Below are positions 458 to 12,460 of a stretch of 32,000 nt of DNA, piece after piece. A program made the position numbers and the translations under genes. The notes beneath the pieces are model-generated. The model did not search any database. It was not told the DNA's origin and saw nothing but the letters and a program-made list of their open reading frames with translations. Every line of letters begins with the position of its first letter. Within the stretch, counting starts at the first letter, position 1. Source of the DNA: Candidatus Jordarchaeales archaeon. GTDB lineage: Archaea; Asgardarchaeota; Jordiarchaeia; Jordiarchaeales; Freyrarchaeaceae. The stretch is taken from positions 14,356 to 46,355 of the forward strand of contig JAWAHN010000002.1 in NCBI GenBank assembly GCA_038889235.1. The letters run 5' to 3'.

Positions 458-3301
458 TCAAGGCATCCTACTGAGCATCTGCTCGAGCTCCCTGATCTTC
501 CTAAGCGCCTTCCTCATAAGGAAAGTGTACTCCTCCTCGCTCATCCTCCCGAGCGAATAGTACTCGTGCAGGCTCTGAAGGTACTTCCGAATCCGCTGTA
601 TCTTGGCGGCAACCTCCTCGCGCGAAGGAACCTCCTCGTCCCCCCCTCTACCAACACCGCCCTCAACCTCCTCAGCCTCTCTCTTCGCCGGCGGCGCCTC
701 AGCCGCGGTTTCAATTGGAGCCACCGGCGGAGCTACAACCCTCCTCCTCTCCCTCCTCGGTGGGGGCACCCACTCCCCCTTCACCTCTTTCAGCTCCTTC
801 TCCAAGGCACCTTTAAGCCTAGCCGCCTCCTCCCTACTGGGAGCGGTGACCTCAACGGCGACCAGCGTAGCGTCAACACTCAAACCCACTGCTGCAGCCA
901 GCCTCGCCGCACCTCTCCCCGCCAGGACCACTACCTCCTCCCCGGGTTGCTCGGAGACCTCCCATCCTTGGGACGCCAACACCTCCTTCAGCTTCCCGAC
1001 GACGAGCGACGGGTTAACTTTAACAGCCAACTGGAACCCCGACGACTCGGCCTTCTGCGACGGGTAGAGGTGTTCGTGAAACCTGTACTTAACCAGCCTG
1101 GAAAGGTAGTCGAGCGCCAAATCCTGCGGCACGTCGAGAACCCTGACGCCCACTGTTGGCTCAATCGTGGCTTCAGGCGGCCTAGCAGCCTCGCCCCCCT
1201 CCACGCCCCTAAATATATCCACCGCCTTTGTTTCGCTTACTTCAGACGGCTTAGCAGCTCCCTCAGCAGCCTCACCTCCTACCCCTTCAGCCGCTGTGCT
1301 GGGTGTGGCCTCCCTTCCGGCGTGTTTGCTCACACGCGGCCTAACCTTCACCACGAAGGCTCTCCCGGTCTCCGCCGACACGTCTGAGACCACTGCTACC
1401 CCGGTCGGAAGTCTGCGTATTAAGTCCTCAGCCAATTTTGGAACCACGTTAGGCGACCTCCTCCTGAAAGCCTCCACGTCCGCCTCGAAGACCAGTCTGT
1501 GTGCGATCACCACGTCTACTTGGGACAACACGCGGTCGTCTGTGGCTGAGGGCTGCTGTGTGGCGAGGACGAGGGCACACCCAGGCTTCCTCCCGAGAGT
1601 GGCGTACTCCACTAGAGGCTTTGAGGCAGCGGTCTCCCCCTTGGCTGGGATTAGCGTGTGCGCCTCGTCCACCATGAGCCACGTGACAGGTATACCCCCC
1701 GCCCCCTTACGCCCCGCCTCCTCAGCCCTCGCTTCCCTTTTCCTCCTCTCCAGTATCTTCCTCGCCAGCAGTCCTACCACGAGCCCCCGCAGCTCCCCGG
1801 TCAGCGTGCTGACATCTACCACCGACACGGTGTTCGGCTTAACTATTTCCTCCAAGGGTGTGCCTTCCTTCGAGAAAATCCCCCACCCCTTTGCCGCCAG
1901 CAGTCTCGAAACCACCGCCCTCCTCGTGTCCGGCTTAAACCCCCTCTCACGCGACAGTATCTCCTTTGACGTCTCAATGCACTCGATTAAGTCGTCGACG
2001 GAGTACTCGTCACCCTTACCCTCAACCTTCACCTCTCTCCCTTCTATGAAGGCGGCATACCCCTCCCTAACCTGTACCAGTGCCTTCTCGATCAGAAGTC
2101 CGGGTGGGCTGAACCTTTCAACACCGAAAGCGTAACACCAGTCGTCAACCGTCAAGTCCGACGGCTTCACGGAGAACGGCACATCCCTAGTTGTCTCCGG
2201 CAGCTCTCCATAAACCCCCAACGGGACGAAGACCCTGACATTGCTAAACCCCTTAGGCTCCAGCCCCCACTCCCTAACCCTCCTCAGCTCATCCGCCTCG
2301 CTGCTCGGCTGCTTCACGCTCCAGAACACACCAATCGGGTCAACTATGACGACCGCCACCCCAAGACCTGAACGCGCAATCTCCTCGGCTAGGACGCCCA
2401 GCGTGTAGGACTTCCCCGACCCCCGCTGGCCGCATATGAAGACAACGTGCGGCTTAAGCACGTCGAGAAGCACAGGGCGCCCCGCCAGCTCCCCCCTCTC
2501 CCATACGCGTCCAATATAGGCGAGCCCACGGCTCACCTCGCGCTCCTCCCTAGTCCTGCCGAGCACCACCCCCTCCCCCACCTCGTCCAACATCACCTCC
2601 AAGGGTGCCCCAACATCGAACACGTCTCCCGGAGCATCCCTCCTCCGCGCCCTCAACTCCCCTAAGAGAGCGGAGAGAGCCCTCCATACGTCTTCAGCAT
2701 TGTCCAAGCTCAGGGATTCAAACACCTTCTCCCGGTCACGCACCCCTTCCGGGTAAAAATTCGGGTCGAAGTTGCAGACCTCCCAGCATGCGAGCGCGGC
2801 ATCCTCTCCAAGCACGCCTGCTGCTTCATCGAAAAACCTTCTCTCTCCCGTCGCCCCGTAGAGCGCCAGAACCCCCCTGGCCCTCTCCACCCCGCTCAGC
2901 CTGTCCACAGCCTCCCTCATCTTCGACAATAACTCCCCACGCCCGGTAGCCCAGTAGACCTCCAGGAGTACTTGGAGGAGTGCCACGTCGACGTACGTTG
3001 TTCTGAAGGCGTAGTCGGCCAGTCTTCCAAGTGCCTCCTCAGTCCTCCCCCCGGGAGCCAGCCTTAGGGCGCGCGCTGCAGCGTTCAGCCTGCCCCCCGC
3101 ACTTCCTCCTTCAAGTATCATGCCGGCCAGCTTGTCCGCTTCGGCCACCGCTCTCTCCAAGAACTCTCTTCTACCGGTCAGCTGGTAGACTGCAGCGAGG
3201 GCGCAGGTTCCCTCCCCTCCCGAGAGGCTTAACACGTCAACCTTTCCCAGAATGGTGTGGAGTAGCTCGCAGACGGGTCTTCCTCTTTCAAGCATAGGCA
3301 A
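458..3301 (-). CDS. Multidomain HerA/FtsK-superfamily ATPase (DUF87/COG0433-like core) with N-terminal helical repeats and C-terminal alpha/beta plus SHOCT-like modules
   Basis: 947-aa ORF with PHVVFICGQRGSGKS (Walker A), IVDPIG, WLMVDEAH (Walker B), GRKPG and LATQQP motifs typical of HerA-like ATPases. Start is TTG 3301 or ATG 3295. Confidence 0.85.
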   Translation of the reverse strand: MPMLERGRPVCELLHTILGKVDVLSLSGGEGTCALAAVYQLTGRREFLERAVAEADKLAGMILEGGSAGGRLNAAARALRLAPGGRTEEALGRLADYAFRTTYVDVALLQVLLEVYWATGRGELLSKMREAVDRLSGVERARGVLALYGATGERRFFDEAAGVLGEDAALACWEVCNFDPNFYPEGVRDREKVFESLSLDNAEDVWRALSALLGELRARRRDAPGDVFDVGAPLEVMLDEVGEGVVLGRTREEREVSRGLAYIGRVWERGELAGRPVLLDVLKPHVVFICGQRGSGKSYTLGVLAEEIARSGLGVAVVIVDPIGVFWSVKQPSSEADELRRVREWGLEPKGFSNVRVFVPLGVYGELPETTRDVPFSVKPSDLTVDDWCYAFGVERFSPPGLLIEKALVQVREGYAAFIEGREVKVEGKGDEYSVDDLIECIETSKEILSRERGFKPDTRRAVVSRLLAAKGWGIFSKEGTPLEEIVKPNTVSVVDVSTLTGELRGLVVGLLARKILERRKREARAEEAGRKGAGGIPVTWLMVDEAHTLIPAKGETAASKPLVEYATLGRKPGCALVLATQQPSATDDRVLSQVDVVIAHRLVFEADVEAFRRRSPNVVPKLAEDLIRRLPTGVAVVSDVSAETGRAFVVKVRPRVSKHAGREATPSTAAEGVGGEAAEGAAKPSEVSETKAVDIFRGVEGGEAARPPEATIEPTVGVRVLDVPQDLALDYLSRLVKYRFHEHLYPSQKAESSGFQLAVKVNPSLVVGKLKEVLASQGWEVSEQPGEEVVVLAGRGAARLAAAVGLSVDATLVAVEVTAPSREEAARLKGALEKELKEVKGEWVPPPRRERRRVVAPPVAPIETAAEAPPAKREAEEVEGGVGRGGDEEVPSREEVAAKIQRIRKYLQSLHEYYSLGRMSEEEYTFLMRKALRKIRELEQMLSRMP

Positions 3302-4534: not shown

Positions 4535-5326
4535 TCAACCCACCACCATGTGAACCCCTACGCAGCACAATAAAACGCCGAAAATCCTCCTCAGCCAAAC
4601 ACCGCTAATCTTGCCTGAAAGCGCGGAGCCAACTTGCCCCCCAATAGCCCCCCCAACACCCATAGCCAAGGCCAGCGCCAGGTTCACGTGGCCGAGGGAA
4701 ACGTGCACCAGCACCCCGGCAGCCGTCATAAAAATCATCGCGAGACACGATGTGCCGACAGCCACGTGAACCGGGACGCCGAGGCAGACGAGGAGAGGAA
4801 CCTGCACTACGCCCCCTCCAATACCCAGAAACCCTGAAGCCAAACCCGCTGAGAAGCCTCCAACCGTGACCAGCAAGAGGTTTAAGCCGCGACTCCTAAT
4901 CCGCCCCCCTCCCCCAAACCTACCGAAGCCCAAAATCATCGCCACCCCGACAGCCACGAGGCTTAAGGCGAACAACCAGCCAACCACCCTGCCGCTAACA
5001 ACACCGGTGAGCAGAGAGCCAAGCAGCGACCCGGGGATTGCCGACAACCCCAAGACCACCCCAAGAGGCCAGTCAAACCTCCCCCGCCAAATGTGGCCGA
5101 CAGCCGAGGACAAGGCGTTCATCCAAACGGCGACAAGACTGGACCCAACGCTGTCAACCACGCTCAAACCCCCCAAGTAATGCAGCAGCGGGACGTACAG
5201 GAAACCCCCACCGACACCGAGAAAGCCGCCAATCACTCCCACAAAGAAACCCAAAACAGACAGAAGAGCCAGCTCCAACGCCGACACCCCAGCCGCAGAC
5301 GACACACCAAAACACACCAAAAACAT
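4535..5326 (-). CDS. Sulfite exporter TauE/SafE family membrane protein
   Basis: Hydrophobic with duplicated G.GGG motifs (GGFLGVGGGFLYVP; SGFLGIGGGVVQVP) and AVGTS. True start may be GTG at 5287. Confidence 0.85.
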   Translation of the reverse strand: MFLVCFGVSSAAGVSALELALLSVLGFFVGVIGGFLGVGGGFLYVPLLHYLGGLSVVDSVGSSLVAVWMNALSSAVGHIWRGRFDWPLGVVLGLSAIPGSLLGSLLTGVVSGRVVGWLFALSLVAVGVAMILGFGRFGGGGRIRSRGLNLLLVTVGGFSAGLASGFLGIGGGVVQVPLLVCLGVPVHVAVGTSCLAMIFMTAAGVLVHVSLGHVNLALALAMGVGGAIGGQVGSALSGKISGVWLRRIFGVLLCCVGVHMVVG

Positions 5327-5903: not shown

Positions 5904-7401
<1,498 letters not shown>

Positions 7402-7623: not shown

Positions 7624-8793
7624 TTAGTGTGGTTTTAGTGGGGTTATGATGGCTGTTAGGGGTCCTTGTGGTGTGTGTGCTTTTTCTGAGACTATTTTTT
7701 GTATTCCTGCTGCTTTCGCTATTTGTTGGGTTATTTCGTCTAGGCTTATGTTGGTGTAGAGTGCTATGGTGTGGTTTTCTCTCATTCTTGGGAGGAATTG
7801 TAGTAGTAGTGGGTTTGCTTGTTTTCCGGTTTTGGGGTTGCATGGTGTTACCAGTATTCTTCTGCTTTCTGGTGTTGTTGCTGTTTTTTCGGTTGCGTAT
7901 TGGAGCTGGTTTACTGTTACTTTTTCTCCTAGGTCTGTTGTTCCTTCGTAGTTTTCGAGTTCTTCTACTAGTTCTTGGTCTGGTTGGAATGGTTCTGGTT
8001 TGTGGATTTTGAGCACGAGGTATAGTGGTTCGGGGTATTTTTCCGCGGCTTTTTTGGCCCTGCTGGCTGCATCTTTCACTGTTGCTGCCTCCACGATTAC
8101 GGGGCCTCCTGTGGTTTTCCTTTTTCCTCCGGTTGTCGGGGTTGTGGTTTGGCTTAGCGCGCTTTTCAGCTCTTCTTCGGCTGTCTTGTAAATGTGTGCT
8201 GACGCTGATATCGTGGTGGTTGTCCCAACGGATTCCACTCCTTTAATGTGTGAGGCTGCCTCTGTGAGGAAGGCCATGTTTATCCCTGCCACGTCTTCCG
8301 GCCATGCTCTCGCCATGTCGTTGCTTCTGATGTACGCGATGGCGTTGACCGTGTCTCCAAACCTGTGGAGAATTATCATGCTTATGCATGGCGGGTTAGG
8401 GTTGGAGGTGTCGGACGCCGGGTTCCAGAACTGTATCAGGGCGGTGTCGCTCCTCTTGAGCGCCTCTCCCGCTTTCACGACTTGGTTGACCCCGAACCTC
8501 TTTCTCGCGCACCACCCGTAGGTGTAGGTGTGCCCGCCTTTTTCAGCCGTCAGGTACTGGGGTATGTAGCTTTCCTTGAGCGTTTTCTCGTCCATTCCTA
8601 TGTAGCCGCGGGGGAGTATGGGTCCGCTCCTCCATGCTGTTAGGTGTATCACGCATCCTATTGTTTCGAGCGTCTCCTGCCTTTTGTCTTCCGTCGTCAC
8701 GGGTATGCCTTTCTCCAGTATCAGCCTGTTAGCCTGCCTCCAGGCTGCGTCCACGTGGCGCGCTCTTATAACGTATGGGCCGTAGGGTTTCAC
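7624..8793 (-). CDS. Thymidylate synthase-fold protein, tandem domains (catalytic N-domain plus degenerate C-domain)
   Basis: YTYG, NQV, FWNP, PPC(136), RSND(156-159) and SAHIY(198-202) are in the N-half. A second degenerate copy carries NQL..PESRR..NP..LLLQFLPR. GTG start overlaps the upstream stop (GTGA). Confidence 0.82.
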   Translation of the reverse strand: MKPYGPYVIRARHVDAAWRQANRLILEKGIPVTTEDKRQETLETIGCVIHLTAWRSGPILPRGYIGMDEKTLKESYIPQYLTAEKGGHTYTYGWCARKRFGVNQVVKAGEALKRSDTALIQFWNPASDTSNPNPPCISMIILHRFGDTVNAIAYIRSNDMARAWPEDVAGINMAFLTEAASHIKGVESVGTTTTISASAHIYKTAEEELKSALSQTTTPTTGGKRKTTGGPVIVEAATVKDAASRAKKAAEKYPEPLYLVLKIHKPEPFQPDQELVEELENYEGTTDLGEKVTVNQLQYATEKTATTPESRRILVTPCNPKTGKQANPLLLQFLPRMRENHTIALYTNISLDEITQQIAKAAGIQKIVSEKAHTPQGPLTAIITPLKPH

Positions 8794-10391
8794 TTTGCCT
8801 CCCTCACCTTATAGTATGGGTGGACTGGCCTAGGAAGTGTTCCGAGGACGTTGCGTGCCTCATCCGCCACGGCGGCTTCGGCTGCTGCCACTAGTGGGAA
8901 GACTTTCTCCGCGTTCCTGATGGGCCCGTAAAGATTGAGGTCCACTCCGTATAGTGACGGTAGAGCGTATATGAAGGAGAAGTCCATTTTCTGTCTGAGC
9001 TCGCGCGGCACCCCTGCAACCATGTTGTGTATGCCTATGGCTGTAGGGTAGCCGTAAAGCTCTTTAAACACCCACGCGGCGTGAAGTGCCTCTATGCCGC
9101 CCTCACCGAGTATCGGGACTCCTGGGTCCAGTATGGCTCCCTCAACAACCCCCCCAACCCCTGACAGCATAGTTTCAGCCTTCTTCAACCTTTCCTCTAG
9201 CGTGAAGCCGTAAGCCAGGATTATGGCGTACCTTACCGGCGCTATTCTGTGTAGGAGCTCAGTCTCCCTCCCACCGGACCCCGTAACCGAGTTGTACACG
9301 GTTCTGTGATCCAGCCCCACCTCCTTCGCCGTCTCCATCGCTTCGACGCGCGCCTCGAGACTTGTCGAGTCAATTATTATAGGCGCGTCTGTCACATCTG
9401 CTACGAAGAGCAGATACCTGGATAGTGCTTCACCCGTCTCGCCAACAACGTGGACCATTGATGGTATGCAGTACTCGTCTGAGAGCTCCGCCTGTCTGAC
9501 AACAAGCCCCTCGGCGGCCTCCTCGTCGAAGACCCCTCTAACTGGGTCCTTAACCACGGGATCCTTCCTGTAGAACAGCGTGCCAGCCAGAACAATGGAG
9601 TACTCACCCCTCTGCCCGCCGAGCTTAACCCCCGCCACGTCGTAAACCCTCAGCTCACTTCTCCTATAGAACAGTGCGCTCAAGGGCTCAGCCCCCCTCT
9701 CCCTCCACCATCCCCCCTCCATTAGGCGTGCAAGCGCCCCCCTCCAGTCGTACTTCTCCTCTTCGAGGGGCGGAATCAGGGGTGGCTCAGGGTACTCTTC
9801 AACATGCCTCTCGGCGAGCAGGCGCATTTGCGCCACTATCTTCTCCGGGCTCCTTTCCCCCCGCAAGTCCACCAGTTCGACCTGCCTCCTAAACCTCTCG
9901 ACGACCACGTGTGGCTCCCCCACCCTGAAGTACTTGGGGTGAAGGAATGGTATAGTCCCCTCGCTCCCGATAACCCTGTAATCCTGCCCTATGCCGTTTT
10001 TGTAGAGGGCCACGAGCGTCTGTCCCGGGGCGTGCCCCACAACCTCCTCACCACAGACGACTAGAAACCTTATTCTGTTGTTGGAAACTATGTTCTGAAT
10101 AACCCTGGCAACCCCGTCGTTCTCCGTCTCACACGGCCCAGCTATGGCTACGAGGTCGGCTGCCAGAGAAACAATTTTCTCCGGCAGGTCGTGCGAGCCA
10201 CACGTGACCACAGCGAAAGCCGCGTCATCCCTCCCAACCACGTAGTCCCCTGAAATGTACGGCCATTTCGCCACATCAACCACCGCGTTGAAAGGTGTTC
10301 GCCCAAACAACACGGCTACATCAAACTCAGAAAGAGCCGAGTTACATTTTTTACGCTCGGACTCAGCCCCTCCCGGGTTTAAGGAGCTCAC
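8790..10391 (-). CDS. MtrA-MtrH fusion (corrinoid-binding MtrA domain plus methyl-tetrahydromethanopterin:corrinoid methyltransferase MtrH domain)
   Basis: N-half: WPYISGDY..G, AVVTCGSH, GPCETEN.G..RVIQNIVSNNRIRFLVVCGEEVVGHAPGQ (corrinoid His kept), IGSEGTIPF. C-half: VYDVAGVKLGGQRGEY..VLAGTLFY, IIIDST, VYNS. Confidence 0.9.
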   Translation of the reverse strand: MSSLNPGGAESERKKCNSALSEFDVAVLFGRTPFNAVVDVAKWPYISGDYVVGRDDAAFAVVTCGSHDLPEKIVSLAADLVAIAGPCETENDGVARVIQNIVSNNRIRFLVVCGEEVVGHAPGQTLVALYKNGIGQDYRVIGSEGTIPFLHPKYFRVGEPHVVVERFRRQVELVDLRGERSPEKIVAQMRLLAERHVEEYPEPPLIPPLEEEKYDWRGALARLMEGGWWRERGAEPLSALFYRRSELRVYDVAGVKLGGQRGEYSIVLAGTLFYRKDPVVKDPVRGVFDEEAAEGLVVRQAELSDEYCIPSMVHVVGETGEALSRYLLFVADVTDAPIIIDSTSLEARVEAMETAKEVGLDHRTVYNSVTGSGGRETELLHRIAPVRYAIILAYGFTLEERLKKAETMLSGVGGVVEGAILDPGVPILGEGGIEALHAAWVFKELYGYPTAIGIHNMVAGVPRELRQKMDFSFIYALPSLYGVDLNLYGPIRNAEKVFPLVAAAEAAVADEARNVLGTLPRPVHPYYKVREAK

Positions 10392-10396
10392 AATCC

Positions 10397-11233
10397 CTAG
10401 CCGCGCTCGAAGTACACTCTCCTTATAACCTTGTACGACACGTAGAGCAGTGCTAGTATCGCCGCCGCTGTGGCAAAGAACAAGGTGTAGGGGTTGCTCA
10501 TAATAGGGTTGCCGAGCAGGTAGCTGTAGATGTAAAACTGGACTAACGGATTATCGGTGAAAAACAGCAGCCCCCTCAAAACCTGGGGCACAACCACGAA
10601 GGACTCGTAACTCCTCTTACCGATATAAGTGTACATGAGAGCCCTAGGAAACGCGCCGACGGCTGTCGCAGCGATGTAAGGCTTAAACCTTATCTTCGTA
10701 AGTCCCGACCCGTAGGACACCGCGTCGAACGGTATCGGGGGCGCCAGACGGGCTACGAGGACGGCGATAGCCCCCCACCTTTCAATCCAGTTGTCCGCTA
10801 TCAGCATTGCGTCACCCAGCGTCCTAACAACCACTTTTTCGAACCTTCCAAGTACCCCGGCTTCCGGGTCTCCGCGCCCCTCCTCCGCTGCCTTCTCCTC
10901 CAACCTAGCAACGATCGGCCTTCCCACGACCCTAGCTATGTAGAACCCGGCTACGGCTCCAGTCAGCTCGCCAACCCCGCCAACTAACGTGGCCACGAGC
11001 AGGGCGTAGTCGAACCCCATGACCAGGTTAACCGGCCAGTAAATGTACGTGAATGCGACGCCCCCAAACATCAAAATGAGCTCGCTCGGTATAATCGCTA
11101 TTATCGCCTGCACAATCATTGCAGCGTAGAACCCCAGGAAGCCATACTTAAGTATCCAAAAGATGACGCCGAAGAAGAGGCTCTGCATGACCTGCTCAAG
11201 GTCGACGAAAAGCGGAAGCAGCAATTCAACCAA
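10397..11233 (-). CDS. TVP38/TMEM64 (DedA/VTT domain) membrane protein
   Basis: QAIIAIIPSE, ARLAPPIPFDAVSYGSGLTKIRF..Y..ATAVG..PR motifs; hydrophobic. Confidence 0.88.
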   Translation of the reverse strand: MVELLLPLFVDLEQVMQSLFFGVIFWILKYGFLGFYAAMIVQAIIAIIPSELILMFGGVAFTYIYWPVNLVMGFDYALLVATLVGGVGELTGAVAGFYIARVVGRPIVARLEEKAAEEGRGDPEAGVLGRFEKVVVRTLGDAMLIADNWIERWGAIAVLVARLAPPIPFDAVSYGSGLTKIRFKPYIAATAVGAFPRALMYTYIGKRSYESFVVVPQVLRGLLFFTDNPLVQFYIYSYLLGNPIMSNPYTLFFATAAAILALLYVSYKVIRRVYFERG

Positions 11234-11305: not shown

Positions 11306-12460
11306 CTACACCACCAGCCCGGTGAGTGCTTTCAACACGAGCCGCGGGTTGGTGAGAAGCTTTTTGATCACTTCAGCCTCGAAGTCCATGTCTCCGTAAG
11401 TTTCAATTATTTCAACCCCACCGTACTCCCGCACCGCCCTGAAAACCCCGTCGAGCCCTTTATCCCCAACCACACCGAGCACCCTACGCGCAGCCTTCAT
11501 GAATAGGAACTCCCTTCCGAGAACCCTTCTCCACCCCTCCTCGTAAGCCTTCAGCGCCTTGTTAACATCCCCCTCAAGCAATACCGCTTCAGCCGCAACG
11601 CGTCCAGCTATCTTCGAACAAATTCCACCGGTCACCACCCCTCCCCCCGTCGTCGGCTTAACCTGCCCAGCAGCGTCTCCAACAACGAGCAACCGGCCGG
11701 AACACGTCCTCCCCACGGGGCCCCCAGTGATTATCACGCCAGCCATCCTGCGAACAACCCTCGCCCCCGAAAACCCCCTCCTCTTAATAAAGCGCCTTAG
11801 TCTCTCCCCTGGACGAGAGTAGGCTCCCAGGCCAACCCTCACCCCACCCTCAACCGGTATAACCCAGGCGAAGAACCCGGGGGCTAAATCGCTCCCAAAA
11901 TGGAGTTCGACAAGCTCCTCGTCCACACAAACACCGGACAGCTCGTACTGAACAGCGGGAATACGCCCCCTAGGCCTAGGGAGGCCCGCAGCTCTTGCTA
12001 TCCTACCCCTACATCCCTCAGCATCCACAACCACTTCACAGCACACCTCAAATCCTCCCCCAGCGCTCACGACAGCCCCCCTGCGCCCCACACTAACCGC
12101 CGTCACCCTTCTACCCAGCATTATCTGCACACCTACGTCCTGCGCGATGGACGCCAACCATTTGTCGAACGCCCTCCTGTCGAGAACCACGGCCTGCGGC
12201 TCCCTACGCCTTACAATAACCTCCTCCCCTGAAGGGGAAACGAAGCGGGCGCCGTACACTTCGTTGAGGACGCACTCTTCTGGGACCTTTAAGCCGAGAG
12301 CTTTGAGTCCGTTGACACTTACCAGTCCAGCGCAGTGGTCCGGCTCTCCGATTGTGCCATGCTCCTCCAAAACTAGGACTCTCACCCCTCTTCCCGCTGC
12401 CTCAAGCGAAGCCAAAGACCCCGCCGGTCCGCAGCCTACAACAACCACGTCGCAGCGCAA
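11306..12460 (-). CDS. Geranylgeranyl reductase family FAD oxidoreductase (archaeal lipid reductase-like)
   Basis: DVVVVGCGPAGS (FAD), VDAEG, APGFFAWVIP, LVVGDAAGQVKPTTGGG. Confidence 0.88.
   Translation of the reverse strand: MRCDVVVVGCGPAGSLASLEAAGRGVRVLVLEEHGTIGEPDHCAGLVSVNGLKALGLKVPEECVLNEVYGARFVSPSGEEVIVRRREPQAVVLDRRAFDKWLASIAQDVGVQIMLGRRVTAVSVGRRGAVVSAGGGFEVCCEVVVDAEGCRGRIARAAGLPRPRGRIPAVQYELSGVCVDEELVELHFGSDLAPGFFAWVIPVEGGVRVGLGAYSRPGERLRRFIKRRGFSGARVVRRMAGVIITGGPVGRTCSGRLLVVGDAAGQVKPTTGGGVVTGGICSKIAGRVAAEAVLLEGDVNKALKAYEEGWRRVLGREFLFMKAARRVLGVVGDKGLDGVFRAVREYGGVEIIETYGDMDFEAEVIKKLLTNPRLVLKALTGLVV

Follow-up and report, generated by a model that had tools for sequence, protein, structure and literature searches.

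To our knowledge, two chemistries for thymidylate synthesis are known, those of ThyA and ThyX. Cysteine-activated C5 methylation by a CH3+ donor is familiar from the S-adenosylmethionine (SAM)-dependent RNA and DNA methyltransferases. The archaeal type of ThyA is scarcely characterized (PMC9931769), and the Glu58/Glu60 motif has been called critical for activation of methylene-tetrahydrofolate (methylene-THF) in all members of the thymidylate synthase (TS), CMP hydroxymethylase and dCMP hydroxymethylase group (PMC6400193). In the Mtr methyltransferase MtrA shuttles between MtrH and an acceptor, and the methyl group's transfer from methyl-tetrahydromethanopterin (methyl-H4MPT) to cob(I)alamin is favourable, at about -15 kJ/mol (PMC4915002). 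A clade of MtrA-MtrH (MtrAH) fusions in Atabeyarchaeia and Freyarchaeia has been published, with coenzyme M suggested as the acceptor and no thymidylate in the main text (PMC11291895). Here we describe a gene pair in a 32,000-nucleotide stretch (the window) of contig JAWAHN010000002.1 from a Candidatus Jordarchaeales archaeon, in which a soluble MtrAH fusion directly precedes a gene for a TS-fold protein. The features of the pair are as follows; all lie on the minus strand.

8790-10391: MtrA-MtrH fusion, longest open reading frame (ORF) 533 residues (ORF list, Pfam, orthologue alignment)
9753-10271: MtrA cobamide-binding domain, residues 41-213 (Pfam and match to solved MtrA)
10032-10034: His120, cobalt-ligand position equivalent to MtrA His84, within EVVGHAPGQ (alignment)
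8847-9653: MtrH methyl-pterin:corrinoid methyltransferase barrel, residues 247-515 (Pfam, structure-sequence alignment)
8790-8793: four-base stop/start overlap GTGA, with AGGGAGG upstream (sequence)
7624-8793: single-chain pseudo-dimeric TS-fold protein, 389 residues (Pfam, AlphaFold model, alignment)
8149-8793: catalytic TS domain, residues 1-215 (alignment with E. coli ThyA and T4 gp42)
8386-8388: Cys136, predicted nucleophile, equivalent to E. coli Cys146 and T4 Cys148 (alignment)
8293-8295: Asp167, uracil/cytosine discriminator, equivalent to E. coli Asn177, T4 Asp179 and MilA Asp186 (invariant in 25 orthologues)
7627-8118: degenerate second TS-fold domain, residues 226-389, without catalytic residues (HHalign, model)
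7858-7863: Arg311-Arg312, invariant, equivalent to the Arg126'/Arg127' pair supplied by the partner subunit in ordinary TS dimers (alignment)

The tandem TS is present in 18 of 301 Asgard genomes, and in every one of these the MtrAH fusion is the gene immediately upstream, in the same orientation; among the 301 neither gene was seen without the other. The carriers belong to five families (Jordarchaeales, Freyarchaeia/Jordarchaeum, Atabeyarchaeia, Borrarchaeum and Sifarchaeum); when all GTDB species were scanned, the tandem TS turned up nowhere else. Loss of the adjacency in relatives had been named beforehand as one of the grounds for giving up the original prediction, which was made from the letters of this DNA and proposed a corrinoid-dependent methylation of a nucleotide; instead, the pair is kept in every carrier genome and in ten of ten metagenome loci with upstream DNA. 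The flanking genes differ by lineage on both sides of the pair, which has stayed together at TS identities of about 38-40% despite this reshuffling. In our view, MtrAH and the TS-fold protein are very probably functionally linked. The same prediction drew attention to the overlap of the TGA of the fusion with the GTG of the TS gene. The overlap is real in the window (GTGA, 8793-8790, with the ribosome-binding-like AGGGAGG 5 bases upstream), but it is confined to Jordarchaeales, where it occurs in four loci; the gap is 1-3 nucleotides in Freyarchaeia/Jordarchaeum and Borrarchaeum and 15-51 nucleotides in Atabeyarchaeia and Sifarchaeum, so that it is the adjacency and order that are conserved and not the overlap. 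One metatranscriptome contains contigs which span both genes and the junction, although contigs cannot show strand or co-transcription; three raw-read RNA runs gave no reads, and a scan for sigma-70 promoters and terminators gave hits at chance level.

The fusion ORF (10391-8790) matches Pfam MtrA over residues 41-213 (E 4e-42) and Pfam MtrH over residues 247-515 (E 9e-58), the latter with 196 bits against a cut-off of 22.8, and it has no membrane anchor. The true start is probably the GTG at 10274 (Val40), giving a protein of 494 residues, because the orthologues align from that point only, leaving 39 earlier codons unaligned, and because a GGTGGTTGAT site stands ahead of it. Within the MtrA domain, Thr89-Glu90-Asn91-x-Gly93, Val97, Asn100, His120 and Gly145-Thr-Ile147-Pro148 match Thr53-Glu54-Asn55-x-Gly57, Val61, Asn64, His84 and Gly109-Ala-Ile111-Pro of the solved MtrA (PMC4915002). 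The His84-Glu54-Ile111 relay of that structure and its tail-binding residues (Thr53, Asn55, Gly57 and Asn64) are therefore all found in the fusion; His120, Glu90, Ile147, Asn91, Gly93 and Asn100 are invariant across 27 fusion orthologues (45-78% identity), and Thr89 is noted in the query. The MtrH part aligns with the MtgA and MtrH structures at E values of 1e-41 to 1e-29, and its invariant Asp341 and Asn456 correspond to the MtgA positions that vary between the PDB variants 6SJO and 6SJP. Judged from these alignments, both the cobamide site and the methyl-pterin site are intact. The soluble fusion with its corrinoid histidine in EVVGHAPGQ was thus read correctly from the letters, as was the suspicion that such fusions were already catalogued.

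The Mtr methyltransferase (PDB entries 5L8X, 5LAA, 8Q3V and 9QTP) shares with the fusion the cobamide signature, the His-Glu-Ile relay and the methyl-pterin TIM barrel, but here the A and H parts are on one chain with no anchor, and the fusion scores below the TIGR01111 and TIGR01114 cut-offs. As had been stated, no other mtr subunit lies near the fusion; moreover, MtrE was not found in any of five genomes including the source genome (G000; labels with G are genomes and those with L loci), three of the five being closed; of the membrane subunits MtrC, MtrD and MtrE, the search was for MtrE only. The usual acceptor of the methyl group is therefore missing. The source genome does hold three further MtrH genes elsewhere, each clustered with its own corrinoid protein and two of the clusters with an activator-like gene, as read from ORF sequences. 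The fusion belongs to the clade published from Atabeyarchaeia and Freyarchaeia (PMC11291895); in contrast with the coenzyme M proposal made there, the constant partner here is the TS-fold gene. Two other proteins with an MtrA part are noted. At L022:2779-4002 (G028) the MtrAH fusion has just 408 residues owing to an internal deletion of about 100, which could be assembly error or decay, and at L069:1573-3198 (G033, a genome with ThyX) a 542-residue protein carries an MtrA domain, its histidine kept, behind an apparent TusA/SirA-type domain.

The TS ORF (8793-7624) scores above the cut-off for Pfam Thymidylat_synt and below that for TIGR03283 (97.9 against 174.55 bits). Its AlphaFold model (pLDDT, the predicted local distance difference test, 92.4; pTM, the predicted template-modelling score, 0.93) has two domains with the same order of secondary-structure elements. 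Fold searches with the whole model, which reported only the first domain against TS, matched it to 9IQC (Z 22.4, r.m.s.d. 2.0, 198 residues aligned), MilA (20.5), ThyA (16-19) and T4 dCMP hydroxymethylase (16.2). Tyr92, Cys136, Arg156, Ser157, Asp159, His200 and Tyr202 align with Tyr94, Cys146, Arg166, Ser167, Asp169, His207 and Tyr209 of E. coli ThyA. The protein accordingly has the marks of the ThyA superfamily, namely the TS fold, the cysteine nucleophile and the equivalents of Arg166, Ser167, His207 and Tyr209, together with the trans arginine pair, which has been lost from the first domain and is found in the second. Homology of the second domain to archaeal TS was detected by HHalign with deeper profiles (97%, E 3e-11, score 73, with shuffles scoring no more than 15.6); with shallow profiles the match between the halves was weak (E 0.044), and an ESM Atlas feature search with the second domain gave no usable match. 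Because the trans arginine pair sits in a domain that has no catalytic residues, the protein is probably, to judge from its residues, a single-chain pseudo-dimer with one active site.

Three features of this site bear on substrate and cofactor. The residue at position 177 is aspartate, the cytosine type seen in T4 dCMP hydroxymethylase and MilA, and not the uracil-type asparagine of classical ThyA. Ser157 and Arg311 fit the deoxyribose-preferring set. The folate-type E-L-x-W motif (Glu58/60), present with the following Trp80/Trp83 insert in seven of seven folate-type references aligned, is absent along with the insert, and Leu72 occupies the aligned column; this register comes from sequence alignment only, and a non-invariant glutamate stands at 73/74. 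The Glu58 column is hydrophobic in 40 of 40 archaeal-type sequences, so that its loss is a trait of the whole archaeal type.

Among known enzymes, the methanogen-type TS (TIGR03283, PF00303) has in common with the window protein a short catalytic domain with YTYG, PC, RSND and HxY motifs, alanine at Gly173, and the lack of both the Glu58 motif and the tryptophan insert. It differs in being a single domain of about 200-230 residues, where the window protein is a 389-residue tandem with one site, aspartate in place of Asn177 and an MtrAH partner. In a quick tree the window TS groups within the archaeal type; backbone support is weak, for which reason nothing is claimed here about where the protein came from or in what order events took place. 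Classical ThyA (E. coli, EC 2.1.1.45) shares the fold and all of the nucleotide-binding and nucleophile residues, but the window protein is not a homodimer, lacks Glu58, the Trp80/Trp83 insert, Gly173, Phe176, Asn177 and the C-terminal lid, and has no FolA to accompany it. T4 dCMP hydroxymethylase, MilA and 9IQC, a flavin-dependent dCMP monooxygenase, have the aspartate discriminator and are the best structural matches. Unlike the window protein, none of the three has a corrinoid partner or a tandem form. The first two keep the catalytic glutamate (Glu60/68) that is missing here and use methylene-THF, whereas 9IQC uses flavin and has asparagine for Asp169 (RSQN motif) where the window TS and all of its orthologues have RSND.

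The gene content of the carriers bears on the role of the pair. The tandem TS is the sole ThyA-fold gene in 16 of the 18, a second, short TS of the Asn type occurring only in G009 and G010; ThyX was not found in any carrier, FolA in none of 32 genomes tested and thymidine kinase in none of five, three of them closed. Thymidylate kinase is above cut-off in 15 of the 18 carriers. On this inventory, the MtrAH-TS module is the best candidate for de novo thymidylate synthesis in these organisms. Mer, which makes methyl-H4MPT, is above cut-off in four of the five genomes, and core methionine synthase, also proposed as an acceptor for MtrA, was found in two and not found in three. DmrX, a candidate partner reductase that is also a biosynthetic enzyme, is above cut-off in G000, G005 and G031 and not above it in G047 and the closed genome G021. 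The argument that the route needs no dihydropterin reductase is not supported by this inventory, since G000 encodes both an above-cut-off DmrX and SHMT. Deaminases are patchy: a dCTP-deaminase homologue is above cut-off in four of the five genomes, and G047 has a dCMP-deaminase-like gene. DUF166 is present in all five.

Several loci found during this inventory are recorded here. The DmrX gene of G000 (C1:1090700-1096011; L002, L080) lies with a gene for a 525-residue protein containing the genome's sole DUF4346 and with further genes apparently for methanopterin biosynthesis. The one dCTP deaminase of G000 that is above cut-off (C1:854340-856075; L085) is atypical and stands directly behind an orphan ORF of 370 residues, a layout repeated in Freyarchaeia-1 (G005, L086). 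In Borrarchaeum (L113:8932-9588; G062:C52) the pair has a thymidylate kinase gene 3-6 kb away, with RimK-like and CofE-like genes upstream. The short TS of G009 and G010 (L070:363-2869, L071:3023-6296) has Lys-Ser for the arginine pair and adjoins an SGGMD PP-loop gene and a barrel-like gene, possibly as a mobile nucleotide-modification cassette.

Domain fusions of MtrA-like and ThyA-like proteins, proposed at the outset as a check on the pairing, exist in large numbers. In a search of 1.8 billion proteins, an MtrA-like domain stands at the N terminus in 100 of the TS protein's 144 next relatives; the ones examined with Pfam are MtrA-TS-DUF4346 proteins from bacteria of the candidate phyla radiation (CPR) and DPANN archaea. 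They join the same two domain types and are the nearest sequence relatives of the window catalytic domain, but they differ from the window pair in being one chain, in having DUF4346 for MtrH, in having lost the histidine ligand and in having asparagine at 177 (all 97 readable fusions). Two Asgard genomes also encode direct MtrA-TS fusions with a DUF4346-like tail, in which the histidine ligand is replaced by tryptophan or tyrosine (L067:3952-5385, minus strand; L068:3348-4682, plus strand). The MtrA part of these two is split from the main fusion group by a well supported but long branch (100/99), and the MtrA domain of MtrAH forms its own clade; the association of MtrA with TS therefore has more than one origin or is ancient.

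Some acceptor is required by a soluble MtrAH, whose only constant neighbour is the TS-fold protein. The explanation that we favour, tentatively and at a little short of an even chance, is a direct relay in which a methyl group would pass from methyl-H4MPT to a methyl-cobamide and on to C5 of a pyrimidine nucleotide. The module would then act in C5 methylation of a deoxypyrimidine monophosphate, as a de novo thymidylate route with cobamide as methyl carrier. From the Mtr chemistry that is known and the sites that are conserved, one would expect the MtrH barrel to charge the cob(I)amide of the tethered MtrA domain with the methyl of methyl-H4MPT. Cys136 would add to C6 of the nucleotide, the phosphate of which would be held by Arg156 and Ser157 and by Arg311 and Arg312 of the second domain. 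MtrA would swing to the single open TS site, which has no folate insert, and the C5 carbanion would take CH3+ from methyl-Co(III), a step for which no enzyme precedent on a pyrimidine is known. Loss of H5 and of the cysteine would give the product and cob(I)amide, the pterin never being oxidized. The substrate is somewhat more probably dCMP, with deamination to follow, because of Asp167; dUMP retains a smaller but substantial share of our expectation because no deaminase is a conserved partner.

Partial precedents for such a relay exist. MesA, a folate enzyme without the folate domain, has methylcobalamin as a methyl source and MtrA as its predicted partner (PMC7857596), and for TsrM the proposal is that C-methylation proceeds through polar attack on methylcob(III)alamin (PMC8992657). 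MesA/B/C and TsrM work alike in this respect but have unrelated folds and sulfur or indole acceptors. In favour of the relay are also the intact cobamide and pterin sites, the absent glutamate motif and the fact that the other three MtrH genes of G000 already have corrinoid proteins of their own. A number of observations weigh against it. The 18 carriers are kin and so amount to about five independent observations; CobS was found in only nine of them; Asp159, the equivalent of the pterin-contacting Asp169, is retained; and DmrX and SHMT together mean that a classical methylene-pterin cycle could be closed in G000. TsrM is His-off and SAM-fed, whereas MtrA is His-on. In the fused MtrA-like domains the histidine loop is deleted, with a histidine at that column in two of 100. 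In Lokiarchaeia (family f9) an archaeal-type TS, likewise without the glutamate motif and insert, occurs in 62 of 68 genomes with MtrA in none of the 68; ThyX is absent in 13 of 18 sampled, and no corrinoid gene was recognised beside the TS in four loci. Family f4 has a short TS beside a DmrX-like gene and no MtrA, and the sister tandem TS P0076, which has the aspartate, lies among ribosomal genes with no MtrA within 5 kb. Finally, Methanosarcina extracts make dTMP from formaldehyde and pterin by an enzyme that was not identified (PMC9931769), a result that we do not regard as decisive because such an extract would also hold Mer and Mtr. The corrinoid relay of the original prediction thus gains from the conserved adjacency and the state of the sites and loses from the Lokiarchaeia enzymes without MtrA and the His-less fused domains elsewhere.

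These observations also define the alternatives. The TS might follow classical chemistry with methylene-H4MPT as one-carbon donor and reductant, DmrX re-reducing the pterin and MtrAH feeding or draining the methyl/methylene-pterin pool. The retention of all nucleotide-activating residues and of the Asp169 equivalent, the presence of DmrX in three genomes and of Mer and SHMT, the archaeal-type TS of Lokiarchaeia, which has no MtrA with it, and that of f4, which adjoins a DmrX-like gene, and the Methanosarcina data are all consistent with this. We nevertheless consider it unlikely: DmrX is not above cut-off in G021 or G047, the glutamate motif and tryptophan insert are missing, MtrAH would stand alone without an evident methyl donor or acceptor while three dedicated MtrH/corrinoid clusters already funnel methyl groups, and the MtrA-TS fusions suggest direct contact and not control of a pool. 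The cobamide protein could also act directly with the TS in another capacity than as CH3+ donor, by giving electrons for reduction of an exocyclic methylene intermediate, by joining in a radical step or by regenerating pterin. Such a role would explain both the tight linkage and the His-less MtrA-like domains in fusions without MtrH, and the closest fold, 9IQC, has swapped folate for flavin, so that cofactor exchange does occur in the TS fold. It leaves the intact MtrH barrel, a methyl-transfer device, unexplained; we found no precedent for it and think it improbable. Complex prediction for the TS with the MtrA domain scored 0.00, where the mark is 0.32, and ended in 'no answer'; it carries no weight either way.

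The invariant Asp167, the cytosine-nucleotide enzymes among the best structural matches (9IQC and MilA) and the lack of a conserved deaminase partner raise the further possibility that the module makes 5-methyl- or 5-hydroxymethyl-dCMP for its own sake, dTMP coming from an unrecognised enzyme such as DUF166. Besides the occurrence of DUF166 in all five genomes, a published table lists a KEGG match to 'thymidylate synthase EC 2.1.1.-' in Atabeya-1. The assignment of DUF166 as a TS was, we believe, withdrawn by Pfam, which weighs against it as the dTMP source. Also against the explanation are the retention of a single-copy chromosomal gene in five families where neither another TS nor a salvage kinase was found, and the asparagine at the discriminator position of the sister protein P0070; we judge it quite improbable. 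That the adjacency is inherited synteny without functional meaning seems to us the most remote of the possibilities considered. All of the carriers are related Asgard lineages and P0076 has no MtrA neighbour, but both flanks were reshuffled while the pair stayed, presence of the two genes matches across the 301 genomes and MtrA-TS fusions occur elsewhere.

Returning to the methyl relay, its broader form would be a third thymidylate chemistry, in which a ThyA-fold enzyme takes an intact methyl group from an MtrH-charged methyl-cobamide protein, with the pterin unoxidized and possibly with dCMP as the first substrate; it may extend to much of the archaeal-type TS family, with lineage-specific corrinoid donors. 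We hold this to be somewhat less likely than not. Each constituent belongs to a known family, and the fusion has been published; we found no paper joining MtrA or MtrH with thymidylate synthase, and neither the pairing, the pseudo-dimer nor the aspartate was found in the papers searched. The chemistry would be new if the relay holds. The pair is a two-protein system with an intact cobamide site, in which it can be decided whether B12 donates the methyl group. If it does, the soluble MtrAH fusion would acquire a function, a methanogenesis module would be tied to DNA precursor synthesis in Asgard archaea and it would be suggested how FolA-less microbes with MtrA-TS fusions make thymine. If it does not, an unusual single-site enzyme of the Asp type would still have its cofactor and its substrate defined.

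Some candidates among the wider relatives were set aside. The Lokiarchaeia TS (L143-L150, L157-L160; families f9 and f23) numbers 335 residues, has a large insertion behind the YSY motif and, in genomes without MtrA, is often the sole TS candidate. Its interpretation as a bacterial ThyA was rejected, as the alignment is of the archaeal type, and with it falls the argument that MtrA tracks archaeal-type TS. In Thorarchaeia some 20 kb of unrelated genes separate MtrA from the TS, an arrangement treated as synteny. At two Thorarchaeia-like loci (L138 and L139, family f7) a cluster of MtrH, MtrA, MtrH and marker 14, joined in one genome by a MetF-like gene, stands about 20 kb away from a short TS that adjoins an NrdD-like gene; marker 14 (DUF2114) was rejected as a dedicated activator, being found in one of the 18 carriers. 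A search for short-protein homologues returned fragments only. P0070 and P0076 form a second clade of tandem TS pseudo-dimers on taxonomically unplaced metagenome contigs.

In the window, downstream of the TS gene, lies a convergent 16S rRNA gene (5904-7400, plus strand), and the intervening gap of 220 nucleotides is very T/G-rich on the plus strand. Upstream of the fusion and in the same direction are a VTT/DedA membrane gene (10397-11233, minus strand) and a geranylgeranyl-reductase-family gene (11306-12460, minus strand), neighbours that are retained in no loci but those of L098 and L099, which are close relatives within Jordarchaeales. The source assembly is 95% complete. Elsewhere in the window a 947-residue HerA/DUF87-type ATPase is encoded at 458-3301 (minus strand), upstream of which is a TauE/SafE gene at 4535-5326.

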